Source: Pseudomonadota bacterium (GTDB lineage Bacteria; Desulfobacterota; S145-22). Taken from it: 51,145 bases of DNA. The notes under the pieces are model-generated. The model did not search any database, was not told where the DNA came from, and saw only the letters and a program-made list of their open reading frames with translations. Of this stretch, positions 1-17,089 are shown piece by piece (within the stretch, counting starts at the first letter, position 1; the number at the start of each line of letters is the position of its first letter). The translations under genes were made by a program, and so were the position numbers. The stretch covers positions 1-51,145 of the forward strand of contig WGDA01000168.1 in assembly GCA_015493505.1 (NCBI GenBank), read 5' to 3'.

Positions 1-621
1 GTTCAAAAACCTTATTTCACGCTTTTCAGGGATGGTTTTACCCTGATTGAGGTTATTGTCGTAATCGCCGCCATTGCCATTCTGGCGGCGATTTTGACTC
101 CCGTGGTTGCCAAGAACATCAAGGACGCGAAAGTTTCGCGGGCCGTCGGCGACGTGAAGGTTATCGCCGCCGCGGTGGGGGATTTCTTCAAGGATCTGAA
201 GGAGTGGCCTATTCTCATTGACGCGGCCAAACCTGTTGGGCCAGACAATCATCTTTACCTCCTCGTCGGTTACGGGAAAGACGGCGCCACAAACGGGGGC
301 ACCACCATGGACTGGAACAAAATAGGCGGATGGCCTGCCGAGAAAATTGATCGCATGGAGAATCACCTCATGAGAAACCATCCGCCCCTCCACCAATATG
401 ACCCCACCCTCTGGCATGGTCCTTATATCGCCCGCATCACGGCGGACCCATGGGGCACGCATTACAGTATCAACGTGGCGTATCTGACGCCTTATCACCC
501 GGAGGGTGAAGTCGTCTGGGTCATCAGCGCTGGTGAGAACAAGACGTGGGAAACGGAGATCGCCCAGAAGAATGATGATATCGTTATTGGAGGAGATGAT
601 ATTGTCTTCAGGATAAAGTAA
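1..621 (+). CDS. GspG-like prepilin/pseudopilin (pilin 1), 5'-truncated by the window edge
   Basis: Frame 1 is open from base 1: ...FRDG|FTLIEVIVVIAAIAILAAILTP (class III signal, E5). C-terminal WHGPY..DPWG..WVISAG..GDDI motifs as in GspG-type pseudopilins. The ORF-track start at 94 is too far downstream. Confidence 0.85.
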   Translation, partial: VQKPYFTLFRDGFTLIEVIVVIAAIAILAAILTPVVAKNIKDAKVSRAVGDVKVIAAAVGDFFKDLKEWPILIDAAKPVGPDNHLYLLVGYGKDGATNGGTTMDWNKIGGWPAEKIDRMENHLMRNHPPLHQYDPTLWHGPYIARITADPWGTHYSINVAYLTPYHPEGEVVWVISAGENKTWETEIAQKNDDIVIGGDDIVFRIK

Positions 622-665
622 CTTTTTCCGAGACCATCAGGGAAAAGGGGTGAATGTCTTTATAA

Positions 666-694
666 TTGACTTAAAACCTGAAACTTCTTATTTT
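666..694 (+). promoter_or_regulatory. Possible sigma-70 promoter for pilin 2 and downstream genes
   Basis: TTGACT-17 bp-TATTTT in an AT-rich gap. Confidence 0.35.
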
Positions 695-751
695 TTCGGA
701 AAGAAAGGCAAGGATATTTTTTTGAGAAACGAACACAAAGGAGGCAACAAA

Positions 752-1462
752 ATGCGACGAATACGGAACGCGAAGGGGTTTACCCTCATTGAAATTATCG
801 TGGTCATTGCCGTCATTGCCATACTGGCCGCGATCCTGGCCCCACAGATCGCGAAATATATCAAAGACGCCAAGGTGTCGAAGGCCCGGGCGGACGTGAA
901 CACTATCGCCGCGGCCATTGGGGATTTCTACAAAGACACCGGCCGTTGGCCCACGGCCAACGACGTAAACGGCACCACGGGGACATCCAGGACAAACGAC
1001 GGCATCTACATTCTTTACAGCGAACAGGGTGCCTTCGCGGCGGGCCATAGTACCGCGACAAACTATTGGAACACCTGGGCCCAGACTTCCAACCGGGGCG
1101 ATACCTTTCGTGATCAAATGGTATTGAACTGGATCCTGGGGAATTCAAACTGGCACTACCCCATCAAAACCGGCGCGCCTCCCGGGCTCTCCCTGACGGA
1201 TGTCTTGGGATGGCACGGGCCTTACCTCAAGACCGTTCCCTCCGACCCCTGGGGACACAAATACTATTGCAACGCGCTCGCGCTCTATTACGGCCAGGGG
1301 GCGTATATTTATGACCAGTGCTGGGTTATTTCCTCTGGGCCAAACGGGACCATTGAGACCCCGGTAGGCAGCCCGCTTGGGAATCCTCAGACGGGAGAGA
1401 TCAACAGCGACCCCATTGGAGGCGCAAACAGCGGCGACGATATCGGCACCATGATCAAGTAG
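752..1462 (+). CDS. GspG-like prepilin (pilin 2)
   Basis: Strong SD (AAGGAGG) before ATG 752; MRRIRNAKG|FTLIEII; GWHGPYL..DPWG; WVISSGPNG..GDDIG. Confidence 0.9.
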   Translation: MRRIRNAKGFTLIEIIVVIAVIAILAAILAPQIAKYIKDAKVSKARADVNTIAAAIGDFYKDTGRWPTANDVNGTTGTSRTNDGIYILYSEQGAFAAGHSTATNYWNTWAQTSNRGDTFRDQMVLNWILGNSNWHYPIKTGAPPGLSLTDVLGWHGPYLKTVPSDPWGHKYYCNALALYYGQGAYIYDQCWVISSGPNGTIETPVGSPLGNPQTGEINSDPIGGANSGDDIGTMIK

Positions 1463-1469
1463 GGGACAC

Positions 1470-2249
1470 ATGGAACGCGGAAAAACCGGAGAATCCCCCC
1501 CAATTATCTTGAGAGATGTATCCAAGCAATACCCCTCTCCCGGGCGATCCAGGGGAAAGGGCCAATGGGCCGTTAAAGACGTCACCCTTGAAATCGAAAG
1601 AGGTAAAATCTTCGGTTTCCTTGGGCCAAACGGGGCAGGGAAAACCACCACCATCAAAATGATGATGGGGCTGACGCGCCCCACAAGGGGCGCCATCTCT
1701 CTTCTGGGGATGCCTCATACCGCCGCGAAGGTCAGGCAGAGGATAGGGTTCCTTCCTGAAAATCCCCGGTTTCCAGGCACATTGACGGCGAAAGAAATCC
1801 TTGTGTGGACGGGAGAGATGATGGGATTGCCCCGGGCGAGTATCTCAAAAAAGGTGGAAGAGACCCTGAAAGAAGTCCTCCTCGATACCGCGGGAAGGAA
1901 AAAAGTGGGCTCTTTCTCCAAGGGGATGATTCAGCGCCTGGGTATCGCCCAGGCTATGATAACTTCTCCGGAGATTCTCATTCTGGATGAACCCCTCTCA
2001 GGCCTGGACCCTCCGGGACGTCAAATGGTATCAGAAATTCTTCGCAGAGAGCGCGAAAGGGGAAGCACCATTTTCTTCTCCTCCCACATCCTTTCTGATG
2101 TCAAGGCCCTGTGCGACGAGGTGGGCCTGATCGTGAATGGACATTTGAGGGCGCGAGGAACCCTGGAAGAGGTTTTTCAACTTGAGGGCGGGGAACCTCC
2201 CGCGTCCCTTGACAAGCGTTTCGCGGAGATCGTGGCAAACGATGCGTAA
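1470..2249 (+). CDS. ABC transporter ATP-binding protein (PilH-like, pilus-associated)
   Basis: Walker A GPNGAGKT, signature FSKGM, Walker B ILILDEP, H-loop SSH. Confidence 0.9.
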   Translation: MERGKTGESPPIILRDVSKQYPSPGRSRGKGQWAVKDVTLEIERGKIFGFLGPNGAGKTTTIKMMMGLTRPTRGAISLLGMPHTAAKVRQRIGFLPENPRFPGTLTAKEILVWTGEMMGLPRASISKKVEETLKEVLLDTAGRKKVGSFSKGMIQRLGIAQAMITSPEILILDEPLSGLDPPGRQMVSEILRRERERGSTIFFSSHILSDVKALCDEVGLIVNGHLRARGTLEEVFQLEGGEPPASLDKRFAEIVANDA

Positions 2250-3003
2250 AATTATTTCCCTCGCGAAAATAACGTTTCTCCAGGGCACGCGCACACGCGT
2301 GTTCTATACACTCCTCTTTTTTGGAGCCGTGATGGTCATCAGCACGGTTGTGTTAAATCAAATGACCGTGGGTGATCCAACGAAAATTATCCAGGATCTG
2401 GGACTTGCCACCCTGACTCTCTTCAGCCTCCTGATCATCGTCTTTATCGGAAACGAAATTCTTGGCAAAGACATGGAAAGCCAGACAATCTACCTAATCC
2501 TCAGCAAACCGATCGGAGGGGGGCAATACCTCTTGGGAAGATTTTTGGGGATTCTAACAATCCTTTACGCGAACATGCTTGCCTTTTCACTCATGATTCT
2601 CTTCCTGAATGCCCTTTACAGCCATACGCTAAAATGGTCTCTTTTCATCTCCGTCGGCCTCACAGCCCTTGAAATGGGTATTCTTCTCTCGTTTCTTATC
2701 CTTTTTTTCGTCTTTATCACGCCCACGCTGGCGCCATTTCTCGTCCTGGCGGTTTTCGTGACTGGACACACAACAACCGAAGTAAAAACCATCTTCGCCC
2801 ACAAACATGGGTTTTACCACCTGTTCTCCATCGCACTTTACTACCTCTTCCCCAATTTTGACCTCCTAAGTGTTCAGACAGAGGTGGTCCACAACGTTCA
2901 TATCCCCCTTTCCCACCTGTTTTATGGCATCGGTTACAGCTTGATTATTATTTGCCTGGTACTCTGGATTTCTTACCTAATTTTTTTGAACAGGGACTTT
3001 TAG
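2242..3003 (+). CDS. ABC-2 type permease (PilI-like)
   Basis: About six hydrophobic segments, motif IYLILSKPI...YLLGRFLG, C-terminal RDF; ATG 2242 overlaps the upstream stop. Confidence 0.85.
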   Translation: MRKIISLAKITFLQGTRTRVFYTLLFFGAVMVISTVVLNQMTVGDPTKIIQDLGLATLTLFSLLIIVFIGNEILGKDMESQTIYLILSKPIGGGQYLLGRFLGILTILYANMLAFSLMILFLNALYSHTLKWSLFISVGLTALEMGILLSFLILFFVFITPTLAPFLVLAVFVTGHTTTEVKTIFAHKHGFYHLFSIALYYLFPNFDLLSVQTEVVHNVHIPLSHLFYGIGYSLIIICLVLWISYLIFLNRDF

Positions 3004-3024
3004 CGCCTTGGTTGATGTCTTACC

Positions 3025-3897
3025 ATGACACATAAAAGAATTTCTCACACAATCATCTCCGCGTTGGTTATCCTCGCGCTCCTCACGCTAACCGTTTTTT
3101 TCAACCTCAGATTGAGCGCCGTTCAGAAAACGTATCCCTCGTTTACCGATCCGGCATTTCTTCCCTCCGCCAGGGCATTGCGCCTCGTCTGCCTCGATTT
3201 CGACGGATTGGCTGCCGATTTTGTCTGGATTAAGGGGGCCATTTATTTCGGGAGCCACTATCGCCAGCACGGATTCCGGTTTAAATGGATGAATGGCCTC
3301 CTGAACCTTGCGACCGATCTCGATCCCTTGTATCATGACGTGTACTGGTATGGATCCACTCTGCTCCCAAATGTGCATCAATCCATCCGGTTGCTGGAGA
3401 AGGGAATGAAACATTTTCCAAACGACTGGAAATTCCCTGAGATGATAGGGTTTTATTACCTGTATTACCTGAAGGACTATAAGTCTGCCGCGAAATTCTA
3501 TGAAATCGCCTCCACGAAACCGGGGCGTCCCCCGTTCGTCCCTTCTCTTGCCAGCCGGTTCTACACGGAGGCAGGGGAATTGAACGCCGCGATTCGCGTG
3601 CTGAAAAATTTTTACGACACAACCAAACGTAAAGACCTCAAAGAGGAATTCGGGCTCAGAATTATTCAGCTTCAGCAGATTAAGCGCCTCCAGATGCTTG
3701 TAAACCGGTATCACGATATTTATGGGCATTACCCCAAAACCCTTCAGGCGTTGATCCTAAAAGGGTTAATCGAAACACTTCCCAAAGAGCCTTTCGGGGG
3801 GTATTACTTCATCGACCCTCATGATCATCGGGTGAAAAGCAGCACGGATCCTTTAACGACTCCACCCGAGGGGAGGAGAAAACATGGCAAAGGGTAA
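3025..3897 (+). CDS. Membrane-anchored TPR-like pilus accessory protein (PilG/XapA-like)
   Basis: N-terminal TM helix, LAADFVWIK motif, TPR-like helices (LLEKGMKHFPNDWKFPEMIGFYY); follows the ABC pair. Confidence 0.65.
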   Translation: MTHKRISHTIISALVILALLTLTVFFNLRLSAVQKTYPSFTDPAFLPSARALRLVCLDFDGLAADFVWIKGAIYFGSHYRQHGFRFKWMNGLLNLATDLDPLYHDVYWYGSTLLPNVHQSIRLLEKGMKHFPNDWKFPEMIGFYYLYYLKDYKSAAKFYEIASTKPGRPPFVPSLASRFYTEAGELNAAIRVLKNFYDTTKRKDLKEEFGLRIIQLQQIKRLQMLVNRYHDIYGHYPKTLQALILKGLIETLPKEPFGGYYFIDPHDHRVKSSTDPLTTPPEGRRKHGKG

Positions 3898-5545
3898 ATT
3901 AGGAGAACGCCTCATTTCCATGGGGATTATCACCCCTGATCAACTTGAGCTGGCACTTAAAGAGCAGAAAAGGACCGGAAAATACCTGGGAGAAGTTATC
4001 AATTCCCTGGGGTTTGCCACGCAAGAGGCTATCCAGACGGCCCTGGCCATGCAGTCCGGCGTCAACTATGTCAATTTGAAAGAGTATTTGATTGACCCGG
4101 AGGCGATCCGTCTGGTCCCGGAATCTTTCGCCAGGGAAAAACTCCTTATTCCACTTTCCGTGGACGGAGATACCCTGACGGTGGCCATGGCGAACGTCTT
4201 CGACCTCCCCACCATCGACGCTCTCCAGCAGATGACGGGATATTTTATCGACGTCAGTGCGGCAAACGAAACGGACATTCAGCAGGCCATCGACCAGTAC
4301 TATGGGAACGTAAAATCGCTCGAAGAGATTATCCAGGAAGCCATTAAAATCGCGGAGTCCAAAGGTGGGGCCGGGCTTGGGGAAGACGTGGAAGCTGCCC
4401 CCATCGTTCGGTTGGTGGACCACCTTATCGTGGAAGGGACCAAACAACGGGCAACGGATATCCATATTGAACCGGAAAGGCAGGTGGTTCGAACCCGATT
4501 CAGGATCGACGGTATCCTTCAGCAGGGCATTTCCCTTCCCAAAATTCTCCAATCCGCGCTGATTGCCCGCATCAAAATTATGGCGGGGATAAATATCGCT
4601 GAAAGCCGCGTCCCCCAGGACGGAAGAATCCTGTTTCATATCGGAAAAAGGACCATTGACCTGCGTGTTTCCACCATGCCAACCATCTACGGCGAAGACA
4701 TCGTCCTGCGGCTGCTCGACAAGGAGAACCTGATTCTTGGCCTCGATAAGCTTGGTTTTTCTCCGGAACATATTCAGATGTACCGGCAGCAGATTAACCG
4801 GCCGCATGGGATTATCCTGGTCACGGGACCCACGGGAAGCGGCAAAACCACCACCCTTTACTCAACCTTGAGTCACATCAATAACCTGGAGCGTTCCATC
4901 ATCACCCTGGAGGACCCGGTTGAGTATGAACTGACCGTCATCCGCCAGACCCAGGTGAACCCAAAAGCGGGCCTCACGTTTGCCACCGGCCTCCGTTCCA
5001 TCCTGCGCCACGACCCAGACATTATTTTTGTCGGTGAGATGCGGGACTCTGAAACCGCCGACATGGCGATACGCTCCGCCCTGACGGGCCATCTGGTCCT
5101 CTCCACGCTTCACACCAATGACGCGGTGGGAAGTATCCCCAGGCTCATGAACATGGGCGTGGAACCGTTCCTGCTCGCCTCCGCCCTGAACGCGGTTATC
5201 GCGCAGCGGCTGGTCCGCGTGATCTGTCCCAACTGCAAGGCTCCCTATGACCCAGAACCACGCCTGAAGAAGCGGTTCGGACTCCCCGCCGACCCCGGCT
5301 TCACCTTCTATCATGGAACTGGCTGCCAGCATTGCGGAAACACCGGCTACCGGGGGCGTATCGGCATTTTTGAAGTCCTCGCGATTTCTTCGCAGATCGA
5401 ATCCATGATCATGGAGAAGGAAGACACACAAGCCATCAAGGAACGGGCCTTGTCCGAAGGTTTCATCACCATGGAGCAGGACGGAATCCGAAAGGTCCGG
5501 GAAGGCATCACCACCCTTGAAGAGGTGGAGCGGGTGGTTGCCTAA
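3884..5545 (+). CDS. Type IV pilus/T2SS assembly ATPase (PilB/GspE/MshE family) with N-terminal MshEN-like domain
   Basis: ATDIHIEP, Walker [28 protein letters not shown], His boxes TGHLVLSTLH, Zn motif CPNC..CQHC. Confidence 0.95.
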   Translation: MAKGKLGERLISMGIITPDQLELALKEQKRTGKYLGEVINSLGFATQEAIQTALAMQSGVNYVNLKEYLIDPEAIRLVPESFAREKLLIPLSVDGDTLTVAMANVFDLPTIDALQQMTGYFIDVSAANETDIQQAIDQYYGNVKSLEEIIQEAIKIAESKGGAGLGEDVEAAPIVRLVDHLIVEGTKQRATDIHIEPERQVVRTRFRIDGILQQGISLPKILQSALIARIKIMAGINIAESRVPQDGRILFHIGKRTIDLRVSTMPTIYGEDIVLRLLDKENLILGLDKLGFSPEHIQMYRQQINRPHGIILVTGPTGSGKTTTLYSTLSHINNLERSIITLEDPVEYELTVIRQTQVNPKAGLTFATGLRSILRHDPDIIFVGEMRDSETADMAIRSALTGHLVLSTLHTNDAVGSIPRLMNMGVEPFLLASALNAVIAQRLVRVICPNCKAPYDPEPRLKKRFGLPADPGFTFYHGTGCQHCGNTGYRGRIGIFEVLAISSQIESMIMEKEDTQAIKERALSEGFITMEQDGIRKVREGITTLEEVERVVA

Positions 5546-6747
5546 TGCCAGCCTTCAAATACAAAGCGGTGGACCAAAGCGGCAAGCGCGTATCAGGCGT
5601 CCTTTACGCGGAAAACGAGCAGGACCTTCAGGACAGCCTTCGCGGCATGCGCCTCTATCTCGTTGAGGCCAAGGAAACAAAACCCTCCCAAGAAATCAGG
5701 TTGTGGAAAAAAGTCAAGCGAAAAGACCTCCTCACCTTTACCGTTCATTTACAGACCATCGTATCCGCCGGCATTCCCATCATCCAGGGTCTTGGAGACC
5801 TCATTGAACAGACGAACAATCAAACCTTCAAAAAGGTCCTTGAAGACGTCCGGGCCGCCATTCAAAGTGGTTCCACCCTGTCTGAGGCGCTGGAGAGGCA
5901 CCCCAAGGCTTTCTCAAACCTCTTTGTCAGTGTTATCCGCGCCGGCGAGGCTTCTGGTAACCTGGACTCTGTCCTGAAAGACCTCATCTCTTTCCTTGAA
6001 TGGCAGGAAGAGATTATTTCGAGTATTCGTCAGGCCACCATTTACCCGATTATCGTCCTGACAGCGGTAACGGGCCTGGTCATTCTTTTGATGACTTTTG
6101 TTTTTCCAAGATTTTCCATTATCTTTGAAAAGGCGAACGTCCCCCTGCCCCTTCCGACCCGGATCGTCATGGGTGTCAGCCATTTCCTTGTCCATGACTG
6201 GGGATACCTCATCGGGGCTCTTATCATTCTCGCATTTCTCTTTCATATCTTTTCCAAAACGGATACAGGCCGCCACCTCATTGACAGGCTGAAACTCAGA
6301 ATTCCCGTCTTTGGCAACCTGATTTTGAAAATCAACCTTTCCAGGTTCTCCCATTATCTTGGCACCCTCATCAGGGCTGGCATCGATATCACCCAGGCAC
6401 TCAGGATTGTCGAGAATGTCATTGGCAACGTCATTATTTCCGATATTATTCGCCTGGTTCGGGCGCGGGTTCAGGCGGGTGAATTTATGTCTGATACCCT
6501 GAAAGAACATCCTGAGTTCCCTCCGCTGGTCGTCCGGATGATATCCATCGGAGAAACCAGCGGAAATCTCGAAGAGACCCTGGGAAAGGTTTCCACCTAT
6601 TACGACCGCGAGGTCCCCGTTACGATTAAAAAGGTCTTCGCCGTTTTTGAGCCCCTTGTTATCGTTTTTCTGGCATCCATCGTCCTTCTTATGGCTCTTT
6701 CCATGTTCTTGCCGCTTTATCAGATGATGGGGGTTATCGCAAAATAA
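5545..6747 (+). CDS. Inner-membrane platform protein (PilC/GspF/MshG family)
   Basis: MPAFKYKA start, two GE(A/T)SGNL repeats, YP motif, EP...LPLY C-terminus, three TM segments. Confidence 0.95.
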   Translation: MPAFKYKAVDQSGKRVSGVLYAENEQDLQDSLRGMRLYLVEAKETKPSQEIRLWKKVKRKDLLTFTVHLQTIVSAGIPIIQGLGDLIEQTNNQTFKKVLEDVRAAIQSGSTLSEALERHPKAFSNLFVSVIRAGEASGNLDSVLKDLISFLEWQEEIISSIRQATIYPIIVLTAVTGLVILLMTFVFPRFSIIFEKANVPLPLPTRIVMGVSHFLVHDWGYLIGALIILAFLFHIFSKTDTGRHLIDRLKLRIPVFGNLILKINLSRFSHYLGTLIRAGIDITQALRIVENVIGNVIISDIIRLVRARVQAGEFMSDTLKEHPEFPPLVVRMISIGETSGNLEETLGKVSTYYDREVPVTIKKVFAVFEPLVIVFLASIVLLMALSMFLPLYQMMGVIAK

Positions 6748-6748
6748 G

Positions 6749-6837
6749 TTCACGATCACGAGGATGTGTTACTTTTTGTAGAAATCCCTACGTAACTTGT
6801 AGTTATTCTTATACGAACATCCCAACACGTGCGTGAA
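6749..6837. repeat. Imperfect inverted repeat just after the pilC-like gene
   Basis: TTCACG..CACG.GGATGT / ACATCC..CGTG CGTGAA; a related hairpin lies at 17041-17089. Confidence 0.5.
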
Positions 6838-6980
6838 TACAGGATACGCCGGAGAAAAATTTAGACATGGACGCATTTGAAAAAAAAATTGAAAGGATAC
6901 CACGCAGAAAGCCTCAAGTTCAGGGAGCGCGATTTCTGAATAATAAGGTGGTCTTGAGGGATGCTGCGATGATTCGCCCT

Positions 6981-7047
6981 GCCCTGCCTGCCCAGTGGAA
7001 CCCGAAACCTTTTGAAGGCTCACTCGGAACAGCTTCGCAGGATAGTA
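6981..7047 (+). repeat. Dispersed REP/MITE-like repeat, copy A
   Basis: Aligns without gaps to the reverse complement of 24225-24291; first 16 nt identical (GCCCTGCCTGCCCAGT), 30 of first 34 identical. Confidence 0.7.
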
Positions 7048-7079
7048 CGGGGATCAAACCGATTTTGTCAAATTTAACA

Positions 7080-7095
7080 TGGCATGTATATTGCT
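7080..7095 (+). promoter_or_regulatory. Sigma-54 (RpoN) -24/-12 promoter
   Basis: TGGCATGTATATTGCT matches TGGCAC-N5-TTGCW with correct GG-N10-GC spacing, 37 nt before the pilin 3 ATG. Confidence 0.85.
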
Positions 7096-7132
7096 TAATA
7101 CAAAGTGATTGTGATCTGAAGTGGAGGACAAA

Positions 7133-7777
7133 ATGAAATATCTTAAACAGCAAGGCGGCTTTACCTTAATGGAAGCCATTGTCGTCATCGCCGTTCTATC
7201 GATCCTCGCAGGCACTCTTGTGCCACTTGCCATCAAAAACATCGACGATTCGAAGATTTCAGCCGCCAAGGCAGACGTGAAAGCGATTGCCGCCGCCATC
7301 ACCAACCTCCGATATAATACCGGTAAATACCCGCACCTGCCTGACAGCGGCGACTATTACACCAACCATCTCTACCTGATATACTCGGGCAAGACCTTTG
7401 TACAACCGACCTACGGCTTTTCCGACAAATCTGGGTACACAAACACGAGCCGGAACGACGCCCTCTTCAACCATCTCATTCAAAACAAACCGGGCGCATC
7501 CAACCACTACGAAAACTGGGAAGGACCGTATCTCGCCTCTGACAAACTTGACCCGTGGGGACGCAGTTATATCGTCACCGTGATTGGATACGCCCATTGC
7601 CTGAACAATTATGGGTGGCCCTATGTCTGGGTTATCTCCGCGGGTCCCGACACACGCCTGGACACCTCCGCAAAAATTGGGGGCAGCCACGGCGCGCCGG
7701 ATGGCCAGCTCGCAGGTGACGACATCGGGTTGCTCATCTTTCAGGGTTCCACATCCCCTCCCTGTAAACCTGAGTAA
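7133..7777 (+). CDS. GspG-like prepilin (pilin 3)
   Basis: SD GGAGG before ATG 7133; MKYLKQQGG|FTLMEAI; WEGPYL..DPWG; WVISAGPD..GDDIG. Confidence 0.9.
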   Translation: MKYLKQQGGFTLMEAIVVIAVLSILAGTLVPLAIKNIDDSKISAAKADVKAIAAAITNLRYNTGKYPHLPDSGDYYTNHLYLIYSGKTFVQPTYGFSDKSGYTNTSRNDALFNHLIQNKPGASNHYENWEGPYLASDKLDPWGRSYIVTVIGYAHCLNNYGWPYVWVISAGPDTRLDTSAKIGGSHGAPDGQLAGDDIGLLIFQGSTSPPCKPE

Positions 7778-7788
7778 GGATAGACGCG

Positions 7789-8409: not shown

Positions 8410-8421
8410 GGAACAGTGAGC

Positions 8422-9009: not shown

Positions 9010-9049
9010 CGCAACCCCCATTCATATCGGCAGAATATCTCTACGTGAT

Positions 9050-9823: not shown

Positions 9824-9912
9824 AAAAAATACGATATTTCAGCATATTATAATCCTATCATCATAAAATTTCGATATTATCACCAGAACCTACTGATATT
9901 TAAATTTTTTCC

Positions 9913-9940
9913 TTGACAAGTATAAATTTAAGTTTATAAT
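9913..9940 (+). promoter_or_regulatory. Sigma-70 promoter with overlapping palindrome
   Basis: TTGACA-16 bp-TATAAT; near-perfect palindrome TATAAATTT|AAGTTTATA at 9921-9938. Confidence 0.75.
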
Positions 9941-9958
9941 TGGAGTGAGGGTGCGCAA

Positions 9959-10198
9959 ATGAACACGACGGATGTCCTAAGGCGAACGGGTATTCCAAGG
10001 CAAAAGCTCTATTACCTTGAACAGAAAGGGTATATCTCCCCGCAGAAAATCCGCGTTGGCGAAAAGGTCTTCAGAGAATTCAACGAATCTGACGTTAAAC
10101 TCATCCATTGGATCTGGACCTACCTGAAAGATGGCTTTCGCTATCGTATTGCCTATGAAAAGGCCCTGAAAAAGGTCGGTGACGGGAGAAAAGTGTAA
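9959..10198 (+). CDS. Small MerR-family winged-HTH DNA-binding protein (no effector domain)
   Basis: TTDVLRRTGIPRQKLYYLEQKGYISP..FREF..SDV..I..YLKDGF pattern of the MerR HTH; 79 aa. Confidence 0.8.
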   Translation: MNTTDVLRRTGIPRQKLYYLEQKGYISPQKIRVGEKVFREFNESDVKLIHWIWTYLKDGFRYRIAYEKALKKVGDGRKV

Positions 10199-11815
10199 AT
10201 GCCCTTCAGATCGCAAACCATTCTTGGCGTTCAGATTACAAACGATAAAATCCGCCTGGTGGAAGGTAAAAGGGCGGACGTGGCCATTTCCGTCTCGCGA
10301 ACTGAAACTTTTCCTCATGGGCCTGGAAAAGACCTCTACCAGACATTGCGGGAAGCCTTAAAAAGCTCAAAAGTGGAAAAGGTTTGCCTGACGCTTCCTT
10401 CCAACTCTGCCAACCATTTCTTCTTTTCGCTTCCAGCCCTGAAAAAGAAGGACGCGCTCATAGTCGTTGAGAGGGAGCTGGCGCAAACCGCTTCTTTTGC
10501 CGTTGGTGACAGCTTTTTTGACTTTACCATCCCCTCCTCTGACGGAGACGGCCCCCTTGACTACGCGGTACTTTCCGCCAAAAAGAATGAAGTCCTCGCG
10601 ACTATCTCCGAATGTCAACGAGCGGGGAAAAAACCTATCCTTCTCACCAGTTACCCTTTCAGCCTTCAACACCTTCTCCAGGTCGTCATCCCTGAATTCA
10701 GAGACCAAATCTACGCCAGCCTTCACATAGAAGAAGACAAAGGATTCCTCTCCATCTTTAAAAAAGGGACTCTTGTCTTTACGCGCAGTTTTTCACTCAA
10801 AATCAAGGCGCCCATGCCTTCCGATTTTGGAAGCGGTTTCCAGAATGAGATCTCCCCTACCGCGACCCGGATTATCCAGGAGACAAGCCGCTCCCTCCTC
10901 TTCTACAAGCAGCACTCCCACGGCCTCATGGCAAAGGGGATTATCGTCAGCGGCAATATTGCGGATACGGGGACCCTGGAAACCACCATGCAGGATGAGC
11001 TGGGGGTTGAAACCCATTTCCTCTCCCCGGAAGACGGGAAAGGCTTGCTCACCCTGTTAAAGCAAAAGGACAAGCCCTTAACAACCCAGGCGCTCATGGA
11101 ATACGCTGTTCCGTTGGGGCTCATACACGCCTCCACTGAAGACACTCCCAATCTCATCCCGGAAATCATCCTGAAGAAAAAAACCATATTCTGGGGACGG
11201 CTCGCCATGATCATCATCGCCATCATCCTGTTCGGGGGGGCCGCTTTCACGCATCTGACTTTAAGGAGGCAAGCAGCTATACTTCAGGAAGCCGTCACAA
11301 CTCAGGAATCAATCCATAAGAGAATGCTTCCAATCATCGCCGCCATCAAAAAAACGAAGAAAAGCAGGGAAAGATACCAAGCCCTTTCTCAATTTTCGAA
11401 GGGGATTCTCGCCTCCCCCGTTTTCTGGACACCATTCTGGGAAGACGTGAGCCAGATCATCCCAGAAGAGATGGTGATAGACCAGGCGGAATTCGTTCAG
11501 GACACCACTCTTAAAACGACATATAAATATAAATTTACTGGTCAGATCAATTCGCCTTCGGCGGAAAAAGCCCAGGAGGTTTATCAGAAATTCATCGACC
11601 TCCTCTTTTCATCCCCATGTGTCATTGAAGGGACGTTTTCCCCACCGGAAATTCTGCCCGCGAAAACCCGGGTTCAAGTCCAGCCTCCGGCGGGCCACGA
11701 CGTGCTGGGAAGCCTCAAAAGCAAAGTCCAGGAGATCGAACAAAAAGGGGCAAGCCTGGCATATCACCTTCAGGGGAAGCTGCAAACGAAATGCGTCAAT
11801 GGGGGCGGCAAATGA
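10199..11815 (+). CDS. PilM-PilN-like fusion (GspL/MshI-like architecture)
   Basis: Cytoplasmic actin-like region (ILGVQI, IIQETSRSLLFY, IIVSG), PNLIP linker resembling the PilN N-terminal INLLP motif, one TM, coiled coil, periplasmic C-domain. Confidence 0.7.
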   Translation: MPFRSQTILGVQITNDKIRLVEGKRADVAISVSRTETFPHGPGKDLYQTLREALKSSKVEKVCLTLPSNSANHFFFSLPALKKKDALIVVERELAQTASFAVGDSFFDFTIPSSDGDGPLDYAVLSAKKNEVLATISECQRAGKKPILLTSYPFSLQHLLQVVIPEFRDQIYASLHIEEDKGFLSIFKKGTLVFTRSFSLKIKAPMPSDFGSGFQNEISPTATRIIQETSRSLLFYKQHSHGLMAKGIIVSGNIADTGTLETTMQDELGVETHFLSPEDGKGLLTLLKQKDKPLTTQALMEYAVPLGLIHASTEDTPNLIPEIILKKKTIFWGRLAMIIIAIILFGGAAFTHLTLRRQAAILQEAVTTQESIHKRMLPIIAAIKKTKKSRERYQALSQFSKGILASPVFWTPFWEDVSQIIPEEMVIDQAEFVQDTTLKTTYKYKFTGQINSPSAEKAQEVYQKFIDLLFSSPCVIEGTFSPPEILPAKTRVQVQPPAGHDVLGSLKSKVQEIEQKGASLAYHLQGKLQTKCVNGGGK

Positions 11816-12447
11816 AAACACAATGGCTTTCCGACCAGCCCGGATGGGTAAAAAGCATCATTCTGGGAACGGGAATCTGCGTGTTTATCGGGCTCATGTA
11901 TTTCCTTGATTTTCGCCCCACGTTTAGAAAAATCAAGCAGGAACAAAACAGGATTGCCGCCCTGACAGTGGAAAACGACGCCTTCAGAAAAGAAATCATC
12001 CATTTCAAAAAACCAACCCCAAAAGAAATTCAGTCCTGGGAATCGCTGTCCGGTTACCTGAGGGAACGCATTCCCAGGGAGAAGGAAACGCTCCTTGCCG
12101 CGCGCCTCCTGGCGGAAAAAGCCGCGCAAAATCAGCTCATGGACGTAACCATTAAAGTCCCCACCGTTTCCGCCTCCTCCCTTGTTATCTCCCAGATTGC
12201 CGGCAAACACCCCACCGTCAAAACTCGGCAAAGTCTCTTCAAGCAATTCGGCATTCAATCTTTTGACATGGAAATGGACTACGTGTCCTCGCTGAAAAGC
12301 AGCCTCGCTTTCCTGGACGCCATCGGAACAAACCCGACGCGCTACCTGGAGACGACCCAGGTAAAAATATCAAAAGACTTCCCCTTTATACGAACCAACG
12401 TCATTATTCGATTCTTTTATGGAGGCCGCTTGAATGTTAAAGAATAA
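11812..12447 (+). CDS. PilO/GspM/MshJ-like alignment protein
   Basis: ATGA overlap with upstream gene; N-terminal TM, coiled coil, RIP motif; operon position. Confidence 0.6.
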   Translation: MKTQWLSDQPGWVKSIILGTGICVFIGLMYFLDFRPTFRKIKQEQNRIAALTVENDAFRKEIIHFKKPTPKEIQSWESLSGYLRERIPREKETLLAARLLAEKAAQNQLMDVTIKVPTVSASSLVISQIAGKHPTVKTRQSLFKQFGIQSFDMEMDYVSSLKSSLAFLDAIGTNPTRYLETTQVKISKDFPFIRTNVIIRFFYGGRLNVKE

Positions 12448-13078
12448 AGCGGTAATGACGATCATCTTCCTTCTGCTTGCCGGCGCGATCGCCTATAATG
12501 TCTATTTTTTCTACAAGCGAACCCACCCAGCCGCGCCTCAACCAGTGGTAACCCCTTCCAGCAAGATGGCAAAGACTCCAAAACCAACGGCAGCGACACC
12601 TCGCGCCGCGTCAGCATCGAGCCCCCCGCCGGCATCGTCCGCCGAATCCCAACAAAATAGCAAGACACCCCTTATGGAGAAGGCTGGAACGGTCAACCTG
12701 CGTAAACGCGCGCTTAAAACGGGCTCCTGGGGGCGAAACCCTTTCTTTACCCCTGACGAACTCAGGCAAATTGCCCTGTTAAAAGGGGAAGCAACGGAAA
12801 GCGAAAAGCTGAAAAAGGTGGAAAAAATCCCGGTAAATTTATCTGGAATCATTGAGGTCGAGCATGAAAGAATGGCAATCATCAACAACCGGGTCATGGT
12901 GGAAGGTGAAGAAATCGGGAATATCAAACTTTTGAAGGTGTTACCAGCGGCGGTATGGATCACTGTCGACAACATCAGACGCTGGGTTCCCTTACCGCAG
13001 TCCCAAATCGCCCTGGTGGTACAAGAAACTACCCAACACACTCCTCAAGATTTAAAGAAGAAGGAGAATCAAAAATGA
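12434..13078 (+). CDS. PilP/MshK/GspB-like periplasmic protein
   Basis: TM anchor, Pro/Ala/Ser-rich linker, GRNPF motif, LSGII..AIINNRV..EGEEI beta domain. Confidence 0.6.
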   Translation: MLKNKAVMTIIFLLLAGAIAYNVYFFYKRTHPAAPQPVVTPSSKMAKTPKPTAATPRAASASSPPPASSAESQQNSKTPLMEKAGTVNLRKRALKTGSWGRNPFFTPDELRQIALLKGEATESEKLKKVEKIPVNLSGIIEVEHERMAIINNRVMVEGEEIGNIKLLKVLPAAVWITVDNIRRWVPLPQSQIALVVQETTQHTPQDLKKKENQK

Positions 13079-14721
13079 AAGTTAGGGCTTTGTCAGGAAT
13101 TCTTCTTTGGTGCGCTTTTTTGATCGTGGGCGGATGCGCGCAGACCCCCACTCATAAATCCGCGACCAGCCCGTTACACCCCATGGAGGCTTCTTCCCCT
13201 CCCGTTCCGCCTCTAAAATCCCTCCCCGCGCTCAGTCCCGCCGTGCCTTCGGAACACGCCCTCATCCCCACAAAGGGGAAAAAGCTTTACACGCTTTCCC
13301 TCCGCAATGCTAACATCCGTGAAGTGCTGTTAGCGTTTGCCAAAAAAGAAGACAAAAACATTATTATCAACCCGGACGTCACGGGAAACGTGACGGTAGA
13401 TATCAAACAACTCACGTTCAAGGAAATCCTCGACCTCATCCTGCCGCCCCTGCATCTCGCTTATAAAATCAAGGAAGGTCGTTTCGTCCATATCTATAAA
13501 CAGAAACCGGTGGGCAGACTTTTCATCTTCAACTATGTTATCAGCGATCGGGAGGGCACCTCGACGCTCTCCGCTTCCACGGGCTCAGATAACAGCTCCG
13601 GCTCCTCCGGAAGCGGAGGATCCAGCAGCGGAGGCGGCACGGGCGGAAGCGGCAGCAGTAACAGCGAATCCACGCTGGACACCAAGGAAGATTTCAAGGT
13701 TTGGGATGATCTGCAAACCGCCATTAAAGGGATGCTCTCCTCAGAAGGGAAACTGATAATAAACAAGACCTCAAACAGTATCTACGTCATCGATTACCCC
13801 TACCAGTTGAAACTCATTTCTCAATACCTGCATTCCATTCAGGCCATCATGCACCGTGAGGTCATGATCGAAGCGGAAATTCTCGAAGTCTATCTGAAAG
13901 ACCAGTATGAAATGGGGATAGACTGGAACAGCGTCTCCGCACTCCTGCCGAATGGATATCATGGAACCTTAGCCGGAGGCGCCACTGTGGCGCAAAACCT
14001 TAGCCCCAACAACGCGCGTTTCCAAATCGGGATTTCCAACAACAAATTTTCGACCCTCATCGACGCGCTGGGCACGCAGGGGGACATCAATGTTTTATCC
14101 AAACCGCGGATATCCACGCTGAACAACCAAAAAGCCATCATCAAGATGGGCAGGGATGATGTTTTCTGGCAGGTAACCGTTGACACGGACCTCCAGACGG
14201 GAATCAAGACGGAAACCACGTCAGCCCAGACCGTGACGGAAGGTGTGATTCTCTCGGTAACGCCTCAGATTGATGGCCAGGGAAATGTGATTATGAACAT
14301 CCAGCCAACTGTTACCGAGAAGGTAGGTGTTTCAGAATCGCGATACGGAGATACCGCGCCCATCATGGATATTCGTGAAACGAACACCATCGTGCGGGTC
14401 AAAAGCGGCCAAACCATCGTGATCGCGGGCCTCATGCGAACGAAAACGGATGAAGAGGTCGAGCAGGTCCCCCTGTTAGGGGATATTCCCCTTATTGGGA
14501 CCCTCTTCAGGCACACCAAACAGGAAGCGAGAAAAACCGAGCTGGTCATCTTGCTCAAACCAACGATCCTGACCCCTTCTCTGATTACCAATATCTCCGC
14601 GAGAGACCGCCAGAGAATGTACGGCACTTACAAGGAAAGAGGATTCAAGCTGGGCGGCAGGCCCTGGAGATATGGCGTTAAAGGAGAAACAAAGGATTTG
14701 AAACCTTTCAGGGGGTTTTAA
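13075..14721 (+). CDS. MshL-like lipoprotein secretin
   Basis: SD AAGGAG before ATG 13075; lipobox-like IVGG-C; Ser/Gly-rich loop; VMIEAEILEV..GIDW, LSKPRI..LNNQKA, GQTIVIAGL, VPLLGDIPLIGTLF, KTELVILLKP. Confidence 0.9.
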   Translation: MKVRALSGILLWCAFLIVGGCAQTPTHKSATSPLHPMEASSPPVPPLKSLPALSPAVPSEHALIPTKGKKLYTLSLRNANIREVLLAFAKKEDKNIIINPDVTGNVTVDIKQLTFKEILDLILPPLHLAYKIKEGRFVHIYKQKPVGRLFIFNYVISDREGTSTLSASTGSDNSSGSSGSGGSSSGGGTGGSGSSNSESTLDTKEDFKVWDDLQTAIKGMLSSEGKLIINKTSNSIYVIDYPYQLKLISQYLHSIQAIMHREVMIEAEILEVYLKDQYEMGIDWNSVSALLPNGYHGTLAGGATVAQNLSPNNARFQIGISNNKFSTLIDALGTQGDINVLSKPRISTLNNQKAIIKMGRDDVFWQVTVDTDLQTGIKTETTSAQTVTEGVILSVTPQIDGQGNVIMNIQPTVTEKVGVSESRYGDTAPIMDIRETNTIVRVKSGQTIVIAGLMRTKTDEEVEQVPLLGDIPLIGTLFRHTKQEARKTELVILLKPTILTPSLITNISARDRQRMYGTYKERGFKLGGRPWRYGVKGETKDLKPFRGF

Positions 14722-15771
14722 ATGTACACGGAATTCTACCATTTCAAGGAAAAACCCTTTGGGTTGACGCCCAACCCGGCATACCTCTTCCTCAGTGAGT
14801 CTCACAGAGAGGCGCTCAACCACCTGAACTTCGGCATCCAACAGAAAGAGGGATTCATTCTGATTACGGGAGACGTGGGAACCGGCAAGACCACACTCTG
14901 CAGAAGCCTGTTAAGCCAACTCAAAAAAGGCTATAAAACAGCGTATATCTTCAATCCCGTTTTATCAATCAAAGACCTCCTGAAAAATATCCTTGAAGAA
15001 TTGGGCATCCCCGTGAGAGCCGGACAAACCAAGCGAGACCTCATCGTGGCGCTGAATCAACGCCTCCTTGACTTTTACAAGCAGGGAATAGGCACGGTGC
15101 TCATCATTGATGAGGCTCAGGACCTGTCTATCGAGGTACTCGAAAACATTCGCCTCCTTTCCAACCTGGAAACGACCCGTGACAAATTATTGCAGATCGT
15201 GCTGGTCGGACAGCCAGAGTTAGAAGAAAAACTGGCTCTCCATTCCTTGAGGCAACTGAATCAGAGAATCACCATCCGATACCATCTAAAGGCCCTTTCG
15301 CTGGAAGAAACCCGGGATTACATCCAGCATCGAATCATCATCGCGGGGACATCCGCGTCCGTAAGGTTTGATGCCTCCGCCGTCAAAGTCGTCTATCGGC
15401 TTTCAGGCGGCATCCCCCGCCTCATCAACCAGTTATGCGACCGGGCGCTTTTGGCGGGATATGTAGCCCAGAAGCGAAACATAACGGGCAAACTCGTTAA
15501 GAAGGGCCTTCACAGCCTTCAGCCTAAAAAGCGCTTTCCCCTGAGGATGTTGCAGTGGGTTGGGATTACGGCTGGAATCCTGCTTATCCTGATGGGCGGA
15601 TATCTGGCGTCTCGAATGATTGAATGGCCCGCCCTGAAGACCCAAAAGCATGCCATATCCATTGAGAGCTCCGTATCGAAAGCCGCTCTTAATTCCGCCA
15701 AGGATTCTCGAGCAGAAGCCCGCGCCGGCGGTATGAAAACAGGAGGGACTCCCATCCATGAGTCTCATTGA
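14722..15771 (+). CDS. MshM/ExeA-family AAA+ ATPase
   Basis: MY.EFY.F..KPF..TP start, Walker A GDVGTGKT, IIDEAQ, LVGQPEL, GIPRLIN..CDRAL; C-terminal TM. Confidence 0.9.
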   Translation: MYTEFYHFKEKPFGLTPNPAYLFLSESHREALNHLNFGIQQKEGFILITGDVGTGKTTLCRSLLSQLKKGYKTAYIFNPVLSIKDLLKNILEELGIPVRAGQTKRDLIVALNQRLLDFYKQGIGTVLIIDEAQDLSIEVLENIRLLSNLETTRDKLLQIVLVGQPELEEKLALHSLRQLNQRITIRYHLKALSLEETRDYIQHRIIIAGTSASVRFDASAVKVVYRLSGGIPRLINQLCDRALLAGYVAQKRNITGKLVKKGLHSLQPKKRFPLRMLQWVGITAGILLILMGGYLASRMIEWPALKTQKHAISIESSVSKAALNSAKDSRAEARAGGMKTGGTPIHESH

Positions 15772-17032
15772 AGACGCGCTGGATAAGGCCGAAAAGGAAC
15801 GGACGGAAACCGGGCGACCGGAGGCGCCTGGTTTAGGGGGCCTTCCATCCGCGGCAAGGGGGGATGGTCCGAAAAGCAAGCTAAGGACCATCGTGGCCGT
15901 GGCAGCAATAATCTGCATCATTCTTTCCCTTACCTATCTGGGGTTATGGTGGTTCCACAGGGAAAGCCCTGGGTCTTCAAGGATAGCCTTGAGTCCCGGC
16001 ATCGCTCAACAACCGACTGCACATCCCACTCCCGAAGCGGTAAGGGAGAAACCGGCTCATTTGACTTCTTCAGTGGCCTCAAAGAACGTTCCCCACTCAG
16101 CGCCAACAGAGCAAAAGGTTGGAGAAAAGATACCCAGGCAGGCCTCGGTCACTCAAACGCCTGCGCCAGCTTCCCAAAATTCTTTGAAACACCCCAAAGA
16201 GGCTCAGACGGCGGTTCATGCGTCGCGTCCGGGGCGCGTTGTGAAACGGACTCATCACCTTTCCCACGCACATGCCCACGCTCATATTCACTCCGCAAAA
16301 AAGCGGCATCACACCAAAAAAAGGACAAACAGGAAGGCAAGCCATCACGCCAGCAGCGCTTCCCGCAAGTCACTGCCACGCCACGTGGCACCCTCAAAAG
16401 AGAACGCGGAACATCTTTCTCTCTCCGTGCGCATCGCCCGGCAATATGTTGAAAAAGGGCTTTCAGCCTATAAAGCGGGAGAACTTCAAAAGGCCGCGCG
16501 CGCCCTTGAAACTTCTATAACTTACGCCGACCCTACCCCTCAAACCCTCGCCTTTCTTGGAAGTATCTATCTGGAAATGGGCAATTACGATAAAGCCTAT
16601 CAATACACGCGCAAGGCGCTCGCGAAGGCCCCAATGGACCCCAAGATACAGGAAAACATGGGGATCATTCTGATGTCAAAGGAGTCGTACGATCAGGCTA
16701 TTCCCTTTTTCCTCCGGGTGATTCAGGCGCGCCCTTTTTGGTACACGCCCCACGTAAACCTGGGTATTGCTTACTGGAAATCAGGCAATTTAGCCGCCGC
16801 TCGGGATCAGCTTCTCACAGCCATCAAGATAGAAAAAGACAGGCCTGAAGCGTATTACAACCTATCGGGGGTATATGAAGCCCAGGGAGATTACTCCCAC
16901 GCCTGCGCCACGCTTGAAAGCTTCCTCAAACATGCGCAGTCGCTGCCCTCCTCCGAGCGCCGCGTGGCCGCGCTACACCTGAAATATCTGAGATCCTATC
17001 TCCAGAAAAAGAGGCCAGACAATGGAAGATAG
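15758..17032 (+). CDS. MshN-like TPR protein
   Basis: MSLIEDAL.KA start typical of MshN/ExeB-like proteins, TM, long disordered linker, about five C-terminal TPRs. Confidence 0.75.
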   Translation: MSLIEDALDKAEKERTETGRPEAPGLGGLPSAARGDGPKSKLRTIVAVAAIICIILSLTYLGLWWFHRESPGSSRIALSPGIAQQPTAHPTPEAVREKPAHLTSSVASKNVPHSAPTEQKVGEKIPRQASVTQTPAPASQNSLKHPKEAQTAVHASRPGRVVKRTHHLSHAHAHAHIHSAKKRHHTKKRTNRKASHHASSASRKSLPRHVAPSKENAEHLSLSVRIARQYVEKGLSAYKAGELQKAARALETSITYADPTPQTLAFLGSIYLEMGNYDKAYQYTRKALAKAPMDPKIQENMGIILMSKESYDQAIPFFLRVIQARPFWYTPHVNLGIAYWKSGNLAAARDQLLTAIKIEKDRPEAYYNLSGVYEAQGDYSHACATLESFLKHAQSLPSSERRVAALHLKYLRSYLQKKRPDNGR

Positions 17033-17040
17033 CCATTTTT

Positions 17041-17089
17041 TTCACGATTTCAGGGGATGTGGTCGCATAGCATTCCTTCTCAGCGTGAA
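17041..17089. repeat. Imperfect hairpin after the last pilus gene
   Basis: TTCACG..AGGGGATGT / GCATTCCTT..CGTGAA; same design as 6749-6837. Confidence 0.45.

Follow-up and report, generated by a model that had tools for sequence, protein, structure and literature searches.

A type IV filament gene cluster with GspG-type pilins and an MSH-related machine, and its relatives in uncultured bacteria

Classes of type IV filaments are usually told apart by the machine together with the subunit it assembles, GspG being typical of secretion pistons and MshA or PilA of pili. Here we analyse a gene cluster in which GspG-type pilins, recognized as such by family models, motif and predicted fold, are encoded together with a machine related to that of the mannose-sensitive haemagglutinin (MSHA) pilus. 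The cluster lies at the start of contig WGDA01000168.1 (C168) in assembly GCA_015493505.1 of a Pseudomonadota bacterium (GTDB lineage Bacteria; Desulfobacterota; S145-22), whose genome amounts to 2.8 Mb in 174 contigs; "the window" denotes the whole stretch of DNA analysed, i.e. the first 51 kb (51,145 nucleotides) of this contig.

Several described systems offer points of comparison. In the model of Denise et al. 2019 (PMC6668835), mshA, mshE, mshG, mshL as well as mshM are mandatory for the MSH class; the same account gives the order mshI-J-K-L-M-N as a feature of MSH loci and describes these loci as having no prepilin peptidase of their own. MshE is described as a receptor of cyclic di-GMP (c-di-GMP) in Vibrio cholerae (PMC4624765). 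For Geobacteraceae, two systems resembling a type II secretion system (T2SS) are reported, Gsp and Pul, of which Pul is described as necessary for OmpB to be secreted (PMC3543383); the pseudopilins of the Geobacter and Pelobacter 'Pul' system are given as PulG, OxpG and TklG by Mehta et al. 2006, as cited in PMC3543383. In the Myxococcus type IVa pilus (T4aP) cluster, the pilin gene is reported to stand in the arrangement pilA-pilG-pilH-pilI (PMC6060248).

Positions 1-17032 of the window hold an unbroken run of filament-machine genes on the forward strand. The window opens inside the cluster, which extends past base 1: when the genome was scanned for class III signal peptides, the N-terminus of the first pilin turned up again at the end of contig C65, whose reverse complement is identical to the window over bases 1-151. 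The join is supported by the GTG start of pilin 1, which falls on C65 nine bases before window base 1. C65 contributes two more GspG-like pilins (L010:219-878 and 896-1525, minus strand), both T2SSG-type and both short of the cut-off of the GspG equivalog, and, beyond them, a REC-GGDEF diguanylate cyclase (L010:1934-2899), followed on the other strand by a branched-chain amino-acid ATP-binding cassette (ABC) operon. The cluster reported at 1-17032 in the initial annotation is therefore real but larger, by two pilins and the REC-GGDEF gene; it comprises eight pilins and spans the run in the window plus about 3 kb of C65. The upstream flank on C65, which that annotation had proposed to inspect, showed besides these two pilins no pilD, pilT or canonical minor pilins. 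Taken together, the two parts probably constitute one complete type IV filament machine, bar the prepilin peptidase. This machine belongs to a distinct clade, so far without a name, in the MSH-related branch of the type IV filament superfamily; we call it type A.

A trivial explanation would be a recent chimera or an assembly artefact, in which T2SS pilin genes were recombined or mis-binned beside an MSH locus. The contig does break exactly within a pilin gene, repeated pilin N-termini confuse assemblers, and the related genome G057 breaks in the same region. However, in another relative, G094, the entire cluster with its eight pilins is found on a single contig with the whole gene order contiguous, as it nearly is in G057 as well, and a separate assembly of sequencing run X1 reaches 679 bases further upstream than window base 1 with zero mismatches and covers window positions 2716-8823 in one piece, again with no mismatches. 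The order of pilin, ATPase, platform, long pilin and envelope genes recurs in other phyla, and the eight pilins resemble the GspG of their own genome only over about 65 N-terminal residues. They share only 24-43% pairwise identity, each with an orthologue in G094, and this low mutual identity implies that they are old. We consider an artefact very improbable.

The pilin genes of the window, all on the forward strand, are located at 1-621 (pilin 1), 749-1462 (pilin 2), 7133-7777 (pilin 3), 7789-8409 (pilin 4), 8422-9009 (pilin 5) and 9050-9823 (pilin 6). All six products match Pfam families N_methyl and T2SSG above the gathering cut-off, with T2SSG scores of 24.3-39.1 bits against 21 (39.1 for pilin 2), and with the pilins on C65 included, eight of eight pass T2SSG. 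Against the GspG equivalog model TIGR01710 they score 32.0-72.4 bits (53.1 for pilin 1), below the cut-off of 88.85, while the genuine GspG of the same genome reaches 178. The motif W-x-G-P-Y...D-P-W-G...S-x-G-P...D-D, which reads WHGPY..DPWG..SSGPN..GDDIG in pilin 2, is present in five of the six; the signature GPY..DPWG..SxGP..DD had been ascribed to all of them, but pilin 1 has SAGEN in place of SxGP. For pilin 5, the best match among solved structures is PulG (5wda), with the GYI..DPWG stretch included.

The predicted fold points in the same direction. For the first upstream pilin, an AlphaFold model built from an alignment of 79 sequences reached a pLDDT (predicted local distance difference test score) of 92, and the nine entries that VIA-align placed best were T2SS major pseudopilins, namely EpsG, GspG of enterohaemorrhagic Escherichia coli, PulG and XcpT, with Z scores of 6.0-8.9 and root-mean-square deviations of 2.2-4.1 Å over 101-125 residues, i.e. 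nearly the whole solved domain; type IVa pilins of Neisseria, Dichelobacter and Myxococcus reached Z scores of 2.0-3.7 only. The top ranks of Foldseek were likewise mostly T2SS major pseudopilins. With GspG (PulG, EpsG, XcpT) the cluster pilins thus share the fold (Z up to 8.9), the GPY..DPWG and S-x-G-P..DD motifs of the C-terminal loop, and Pfam T2SSG. They differ in being longer, roughly 200 amino acids (aa) against 134-152, with an alpha-beta loop longer by about 50 residues, the extra length lying between the long helix and the GPY motif; moreover, they occur as eight paralogues rather than one and remain under the GspG equivalog cut-off. By Pfam, motif and modelled fold the pilins are GspG-type, in agreement with the T2SS-type assignment made earlier. 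Neither Pfam nor NCBIfam recognized a GspH/I/J/K, PilA or MshA family in the cluster, NCBIfam matches being confined to N-termini, which bears out the initial annotation on this point too; the canonical minor and major pilins are encoded on other contigs, in separate T2SS and T4aP loci.

Homologues of the pilin are numerous and poorly named. At E ≤ 1e-5 there are 349, of which the best 120 are 46-90% identical and 190-250 aa long, and their names are merely 'GspG', 'PulG' or 'prepilin-type'. Among representatives of 50%-identity clusters we counted 37 at E ≤ 1e-30, 598 at 1e-10 and 17,276 at 1e-3, the last figure including matches to the shared pilin N-terminus alone. Within the window's phylum, pilins like the query are present in 12 of 201 genomes, at full length in about nine, and the expansion to eight is seen only in the window's family.

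Pilin 6 stands apart from the others. It appears to be derived from GspG and carries a predicted C-terminal beta-sandwich extension of about 100 residues; its model is moderate (pLDDT 69, with about 80-86 in the C-terminal part). Structural matches of the extension were generic beta-sandwiches, and we do not claim a specific family for it. Orthologues of pilin 6 are encoded directly after the platform gene in eight other type A loci, all outside the window's family (L085, L089, L093, L094, L116, L119, L123 and L127). The pilin that L123 encodes at this position (6069-7184) is 371 aa long and matches T2SSG in two stretches (89.8 bits), so that it looks like a tandem GspG-domain protein.

The machine that accompanies these pilins is of a different kind. 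The extension ATPase (3884-5545, forward strand as are all genes of the run) belongs to the GspE/PilB/MshE family (T2SSE, 455.7 bits) and has an N-terminal MshEN domain (82.6 bits) with the c-di-GMP motif known from MshE-related proteins (NF053729, 59.4 bits against a curated cut-off of 38); it remains below the equivalog cut-offs of GspE and of PilB (583.6 against 675.65 for the latter). The inner-membrane platform protein (5545-6747; T2SSF, 192.4 bits) belongs to the GspF/PilC/MshG family and is below the GspF equivalog cut-off. A PilT or other retraction ATPase was not found within the locus.

The envelope genes follow in the order mshI-J-K-L-M-N. The first (10199-11815) encodes an MshI-like assembly protein with a PilM-like cytoplasmic domain (PilM_2, 29.2 bits, cut-off 27), a transmembrane (TM) segment and a periplasmic part; in NCBIfam it matches the Amuc_1101 family and pilM weakly. 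The next two are named by position: a bitopic MshJ/PilO/GspM-like protein (11791-12447; only a sub-threshold T2SSM match, E 0.014), whose gene keeps its place in relatives, and a small periplasmic MshK-like protein (12434-13078; only sub-threshold T2SSB, E 0.02), which has a weak BLAST match to the protein encoded before mshL in Legionella adelaidensis. The secretin (13075-14721; Secretin 146.2 and Secretin_N_2 49.4 bits) has a Ser/Gly-rich linker and, judging from the signal ...LIVGGC in its translation, is probably a lipoprotein; its best NCBIfam model is MshL (TIGR02519, 223.7 bits), ahead of GspD (184.3, below the equivalog cut-off) and PilQ (170). It is followed by an MshM/ExeA-like AAA+ protein (14722-15771; AAA_22, 106.4 bits; TIGR03015, 302.1 bits, below the cut-off of 324.5) that shares 49% identity over 247 residues with the product of the AAA gene after mshL in L. 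adelaidensis, and by an MshN-like tetratricopeptide repeat (TPR) protein (15758-17032) with an N-terminal TM segment, matches to several TPR families of Pfam and weak matches to PilW, Tgl and PrsT; its position after the AAA gene is conserved. AAA_22 was also tried as a marker of the system and discarded as too common, with matches in 172 of 201 genomes and often several per genome.

With MSHA systems, the cluster therefore has in common the succession of a PilM-like fusion, two small proteins, a lipoprotein secretin, an AAA+ MshM gene adjoining it and a TPR MshN, as well as an ATPase with the MshEN c-di-GMP motif, the lack of a prepilin peptidase in the locus, and a secretin and platform that group with those of MSH-type loci. 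The envelope genes had indeed been called MSHA-like from the start, and the gene order, the MshL model and the secretin tree agree. In contrast to MSHA loci, the ATPase and platform genes are upstream of the envelope genes, before mshI and not after mshN, the pilins are not MshA/B/C/D-like, and neither a large MshQ-like pilin nor GspH-like minor pilins are present.

Relatives of the cluster were collected by a search with the secretin alignment, one genome per species, from which the best 80 named loci were annotated with the proteins of the window; loci from the window's phylum were added, and labels A, B and C were assigned from gene order. In type A, the order is often T2SSG-type pilin, ATPase, platform, a longer pilin resembling pilin 6, and I-(J)-(K)-L-M-N. 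It has been found in the window's family and in metagenome-assembled genomes (MAGs) labelled Syntrophales, Desulfarculaceae, Deltaproteobacteria/Myxococcota, Anaeromyxobacteraceae, Acidobacteriota, Aminicenantes and Nitrospinota, and in a rearranged form in Methylomirabilia. Type B loci, from Syntrophaceae and other Thermodesulfobacteriota, have the order platform, three short pilins, I..N, ATPase; they also present, for example at L100:19396-21051, L105:20525-21331 and L138:18016-18833, two to four tandem pilin open reading frames (ORFs) of about 121-130 aa on the opposite strand, just past the ATPase. Type C loci, with the order L-M-(N)-ATPase-platform-pilins, come from gamma- and betaproteobacteria and include the mshL locus of L. 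adelaidensis, annotated by the Prokaryotic Genome Annotation Pipeline (PGAP).

Outside the window's family, 12 type A loci extend at least 1.9 kb upstream of the ATPase, and in seven of them (L064, L087, L089, L092, L093, L116 and L123) a T2SSG-type pilin is encoded directly before it. As a control, Pfam T2SSG was applied to pilin ORFs listed for types B and C (63 out of 124) and for type A (15 out of 16). It matched no pilin among the 28 of type B or the 35 of type C, but nine among the 15 that came from other type A loci, and in BLAST comparisons with the L. adelaidensis pilins only the N-termini of the cluster pilins matched. The combination of a GspG-type pilin with an MSH-related machine is a recurrent architecture of several uncultured phyla. 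The initial annotation had asked for conserved synteny to be sought in other genomes; the type A order does recur across phyla, and its ATPase clade spans at least six phylum-level labels, so the idea of a one-off hybrid does not survive and the architecture is an old, recurrent one rather than a recent hybrid. In L064 (G036:C208, 1914-3535), the type A ATPase gene is split into two overlapping ORFs, which we attribute to a frameshift or a sequencing error.

Phylogenetic trees place type A beside, and not within, the classical MSH systems. The ATPase tree was calculated with care from 50 rows under LG+C20, unrooted, with supports given below as ultrafast bootstrap (UFBoot)/SH-like approximate likelihood ratio test (SH-aLRT); PilT was excluded, as were L071 and L110, whose rows were long or odd. 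The other three trees (95-row ATPase, platform and secretin) were quick searches, and the secretin tree dropped the PilQ anchor L212, which has an internal stop, and the gappy GspD row L173. In the ATPase tree, A together with the Methylomirabilia row forms a clade at 100/99, B with an anammox row another at 100/99, and the two are sisters at 92/90; the gamma- and betaproteobacterial MSH clade (C) is supported at 100/100, T2SS at 100/99 and T4aP at 100/100. The 95-row tree has the same clades, and type B ATPases from genomes of the window's phylum group with MAGs labelled Thermodesulfobacteriota or Syntrophaceae, which makes Thermodesulfobacteriota the probable phylum. A tree rooted with PilT, in which the gamma/beta MSH clade came first, was set aside, its long-branch root being distrusted. 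In the platform tree (SH-aLRT), {A,B,C} is supported at 96, A at 97, its sister B+C at 96 and T2SS at 100. In the secretin tree, all 90 secretins of types A, B and C, among them that of the annotated mshL locus of L. adelaidensis, form one clade (SH-aLRT 100) that excludes GspD (99) and PilQ; within it, types A and B intermingle and the 45 gamma/beta secretins form a clade at 100. All three components lie outside the T2SS (99-100) and T4aP clades, and the type A ATPase and platform form a well-supported clade of their own. The suggestion that the system fits none of T2SS, T4aP and MSHA thus holds insofar as its ATPase and platform fall outside the T2SS, T4aP and gamma/beta MSH clades, but because the secretin (100) and platform (96) share a superclade with MSH-type systems, type A is better regarded as a distinct branch of the MSH-related lineage.

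Type B loci are close relatives: they share with the cluster the sister ATPase clade (92/90), interleaved secretins and the same I-J-K-L-M-N block, and differ from it in the order of platform, three short non-GspG pilins, I..N and ATPase, with no T2SSG-type pilin among the 28. One could still take the cluster for nothing more than an MSHA pilus locus whose pilins have diverged, and so for a regular representative of the MSH class, given its mshI-J-K-L-M-N order and the lack of a prepilin peptidase, both listed for such loci in PMC6668835, its best secretin model, MshL, and the superclade of secretin and platform with MSH-type loci. We regard this as improbable: the ATPase (100/99) and platform (97) are apart from their gamma/beta MSH counterparts, their genes come before mshI, no MshA-like pilin is encoded, T2SSG matches eight of eight pilins here against none of 63 in types B and C, and the MshL equivalog cut-off is not reached.

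The genome encodes canonical systems besides. Contig C21 carries a T2SS with GspD-E-F-G, GspH/I/J/K-like genes and a Leptospira-type GspN, its GspD, GspE and GspG exceeding the equivalog cut-offs. T4aP genes are distributed over C143 (PilB, above its cut-off, PilT, PilC, PilS and PilR), C84 (PilM-N-O-P-Q and the only Peptidase_A24/prepilin peptidase of the genome) and C42 and C64 (PilA-like and minor pilins and a 1082-aa gene of the size of PilY1). The cluster in the window is a third type IV filament system beside these two, and because the sole prepilin peptidase lies in the T4aP locus on C84, the cluster would have to borrow PilD, as MSH loci are reported to do (PMC6668835). From T4aP, the cluster differs in its position outside the PilB, PilC and PilQ clades, in the lack of PilT in the locus and in the low Z scores (2-3.7) of its pilin against type IVa pilins; from T2SS, in the lack of a GspH-I-J-K tip set, GspC, a T2SS-type secretin and a T2SS-type ATPase. 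A fourth secretin (722 aa; C111:8932-11100, L198) is encoded near an ABC-2 exporter and other envelope genes, with no pilus or T2SS locus around it, and joins the GspD clade loosely (87).

The main competitor is the view that the cluster is a second, atypical T2SS, in which a short periplasmic pseudopilus of GspG-like subunits pushes folded proteins through an MshL-type secretin, as proposed for Pul. Both Pfam and the fold mark the pilins as GspG-type, the genes for the PilM-TM fusion and its neighbour lend themselves equally to a GspL- and GspM-like reading (sub-threshold T2SSM), MshM resembles the ExeA-type ATPases of secretin assembly, and the Gsp and Pul systems of Geobacteraceae, with Pul linked to OmpB secretion (PMC3543383), provide a precedent. 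On the other hand, a complete canonical T2SS (GspD-E-F-G-H-I-J-K..N) is already present on C21, no GspC or GspH/I/J/K was found in the cluster, and the ATPase, platform and secretin are outside the T2SS clades. Eight diverged pilins, one with an appended beta-sandwich, would be unusual for a piston, and the ATPase of the MSHA pilus is known to have an N-terminus that senses c-di-GMP. We rate secretion as a minority possibility. With Pul, type A can be likened by description only, as another pseudopilin-bearing system found beside a canonical Gsp in deltaproteobacteria and having several pseudopilins, in the terms of PMC3543383; no Geobacter record was among the best 80 of the secretin search. 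Our literature search, which did not extend to subscription papers such as Mehta 2006, found no description of GspG-type pilins on an MSH machine, and the gene content of the Pul/OxpG locus may bear directly on the claim of novelty. The annotation's 'undescribed subclass' can accordingly stand as far as no published description was found, but as a branch of the MSH-related lineage rather than as something outside every known class.

Two candidate promoter types were noted in the cluster. An element of the sigma-54 -24/-12 type, GGCAT-N5-TTGCT, lies at 7081-7095 on the forward strand, 38 bases before pilin 3; it is a pattern match, one in the window against 0.05 expected. A second copy of this pattern precedes the first upstream pilin by 40 bases, at C65:1565-1579, as the sole match in 6 kb where 0.03 would be expected, and as the pattern was taken from the site at 7081-7095, only the match on C65 is an independent test. 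A sigma-70-like promoter match, TTGACA-16-TATAAT (12/12 in a consensus scan, 9913-9940, forward strand), is situated in the 375-bp gap before the envelope genes; G057 retains such a gap, of about 380 bp. An Rfam scan of positions 1-17400 at E ≤ 1 gave no match, therefore no c-di-GMP riboswitch. The gap between the platform gene and pilin 3 (6748-7132), where the sigma-54-type element is located, measures 385 bp here and about 100-155 bp in G094 and G057; it also contains an ORF of 89 aa (6867-7136) with no family match, and one contig of run X3 skips or replaces parts of it.

An ABC module is inserted between pilin 2 and the ATPase. It consists of an ABC transporter ATPase of the ABC-2/DrrA-GldA type (1470-2249; ABC_tran, 103.9 bits; best NCBIfam models drrA and GldA, below cut-offs), an ABC-2 type permease (2251-3003; ABC2_membrane_2, 24.4 bits, just below the cut-off of 27.2), whose gene always adjoins that of the ABC ATPase in related loci, and a membrane-anchored third protein of 290 aa (3025-3897) with no Pfam or NCBIfam match. 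The trio announced in the initial annotation is there, but the TPR label given to its third member comes from automatic Atlas cluster names, with no match in Pfam. Homologues of the third protein adjoin the ABC pair and are found in 63 of 201 genomes of the phylum; the genome itself has no second copy. All 20 loci fetched contain homologous trios, in both gene orders. Only two of the trios, both from the window's family, are inside an MSH-related cluster, so the module cannot be counted as a feature of the class. The other 18 are outside any MshL cluster, 11 of them with a pilin-like ORF within the same 20 kb; in L043, the trio adjoins an ATPase of the T4aP clade, and the loci of other families show a pilin-like ORF and, where visible, PilB, PilC or REC genes.

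This arrangement in other families fits that of pilA-pilG-pilH-pilI in Myxococcus, in keeping with the likeness to PilGHI drawn in the annotation. Like PilG-PilH-PilI of M. xanthus, compared here by description only, the trio combines an ABC ATPase, an ABC-2 permease and a third membrane protein beside pilin genes, and the third protein is called PilG-like from position and literature; unlike the Myxococcus module, which is part of a T4aP cluster, it resides in an MSH-related one. It is a family-specific addition with a putative link to export or modification of the fibre. The features special to the family, namely the eight pilins, the sigma-54-type promoters, the ABC module and the GGDEF neighbour, suggest regulated surface variation in a bacterium of hydrothermal vents. 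The DNA of the window occurs in sequencing runs labelled hydrothermal vent metagenome, and pieces 90-99% alike have been found in runs of two further studies.

The cluster may be imagined to work as follows. Pilin genes would be transcribed from sigma-54-type promoters and the prepilins cut by the sole PilD, encoded in the T4aP locus. Binding of c-di-GMP to the MshEN N-terminus would activate the ATPase, the source of the nucleotide in this genome being perhaps the adjacent REC-GGDEF protein. The ATPase and platform, with the MshI/J/K-like proteins for alignment, would then polymerize GspG-fold subunits through the MshL-type lipoprotein secretin, for the assembly of which the MshM-like AAA+ and MshN-like TPR proteins would be needed. 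Pilin 6, with its C-terminal beta-sandwich and its conserved place after the platform gene, appears the likeliest priming or tip subunit, while the seven other diverged paralogues could provide alternative or mixed fibre surfaces.

We infer that the cluster produces a filament at the cell surface and not a piston, and a c-di-GMP-controlled adhesion filament seems to us slightly favoured by the evidence, with the secretion pseudopilus given about half that weight. Several observations count against the assignment of type A as we have drawn it. With 223.7 bits, the secretin falls short of the 250.2 set as cut-off for the MshL equivalog, five of the 12 type A loci outside the family (L086, L095, L097, L115 and L127) have no T2SSG-type pilin before the ATPase in our screens, and Foldseek gave no match of the pilin model to PDB at E ≤ 0.001, only weak ones at E 0.07-0.2. 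For the ATPase, the split that joins A+B to the gamma/beta MSH clade and sets {A,B,C} apart from {T2SS,T4aP} has weak support (86/50). The T2SS (GspD-E-F) and T4aP (PilB-T-C, PilQ) anchors are drawn from the window's phylum only, and the MSH anchors consist of the L. adelaidensis locus and loci from the search with the window's secretin, without the V. cholerae reference. As to function, a GspG-type subunit bearing a Ca loop and a locus without a retraction ATPase would suit a secretion pseudopilus as well; the PilB of the same genome also carries the c-di-GMP motif, which is consequently not specific to this system; and the GGDEF neighbour is not conserved, G094 having a sigma-54 activator in its place.

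A bolder interpretation, which we hold only tentatively and think rather doubtful, is that type A represents a third lineage of ancient origin, alongside T2SS and the classical MSH pilus, and a living intermediate in which a GspG-type major subunit is assembled on a PilM/N/O-like and MshL-M-N envelope, with c-di-GMP-gated surface pili made of eight interchangeable subunits of the pseudopilin fold and an ABC accessory borrowed from T4aP. If so, the T2SS pseudopilus and MSH pili would descend from a machine with GspG-like fibres. Short of that, a family of GspG-fold subunits, amounting to hundreds of metagenome clusters at 50% identity, is tied to an MSH-related machine in many uncultured lineages, which bears on the order of events in the split of T2SS and MSH; the automatic label 'T2SS protein G' probably misassigns function in these phyla. 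The cluster also offers a concrete system for asking whether the pseudopilin fold forms natural long pili and what sets the length of the fibre.

The remainder of the window is ordinary chromosome, with purQ, adenine deaminase, rpoD, dnaG, mutS2, lon, clpX, clpP and tig among its genes. A gene of the histone-deacetylase family (17296-18348), with no known link to pili, follows the TPR gene both here and in G094. Further downstream, a fragment of aldehyde ferredoxin oxidoreductase occurs with an XdhC-type maturation factor (27697-30575), and larC and larB, for synthesis of the nickel-pincer cofactor, are located at 32062-34010, both above their equivalog cut-offs.

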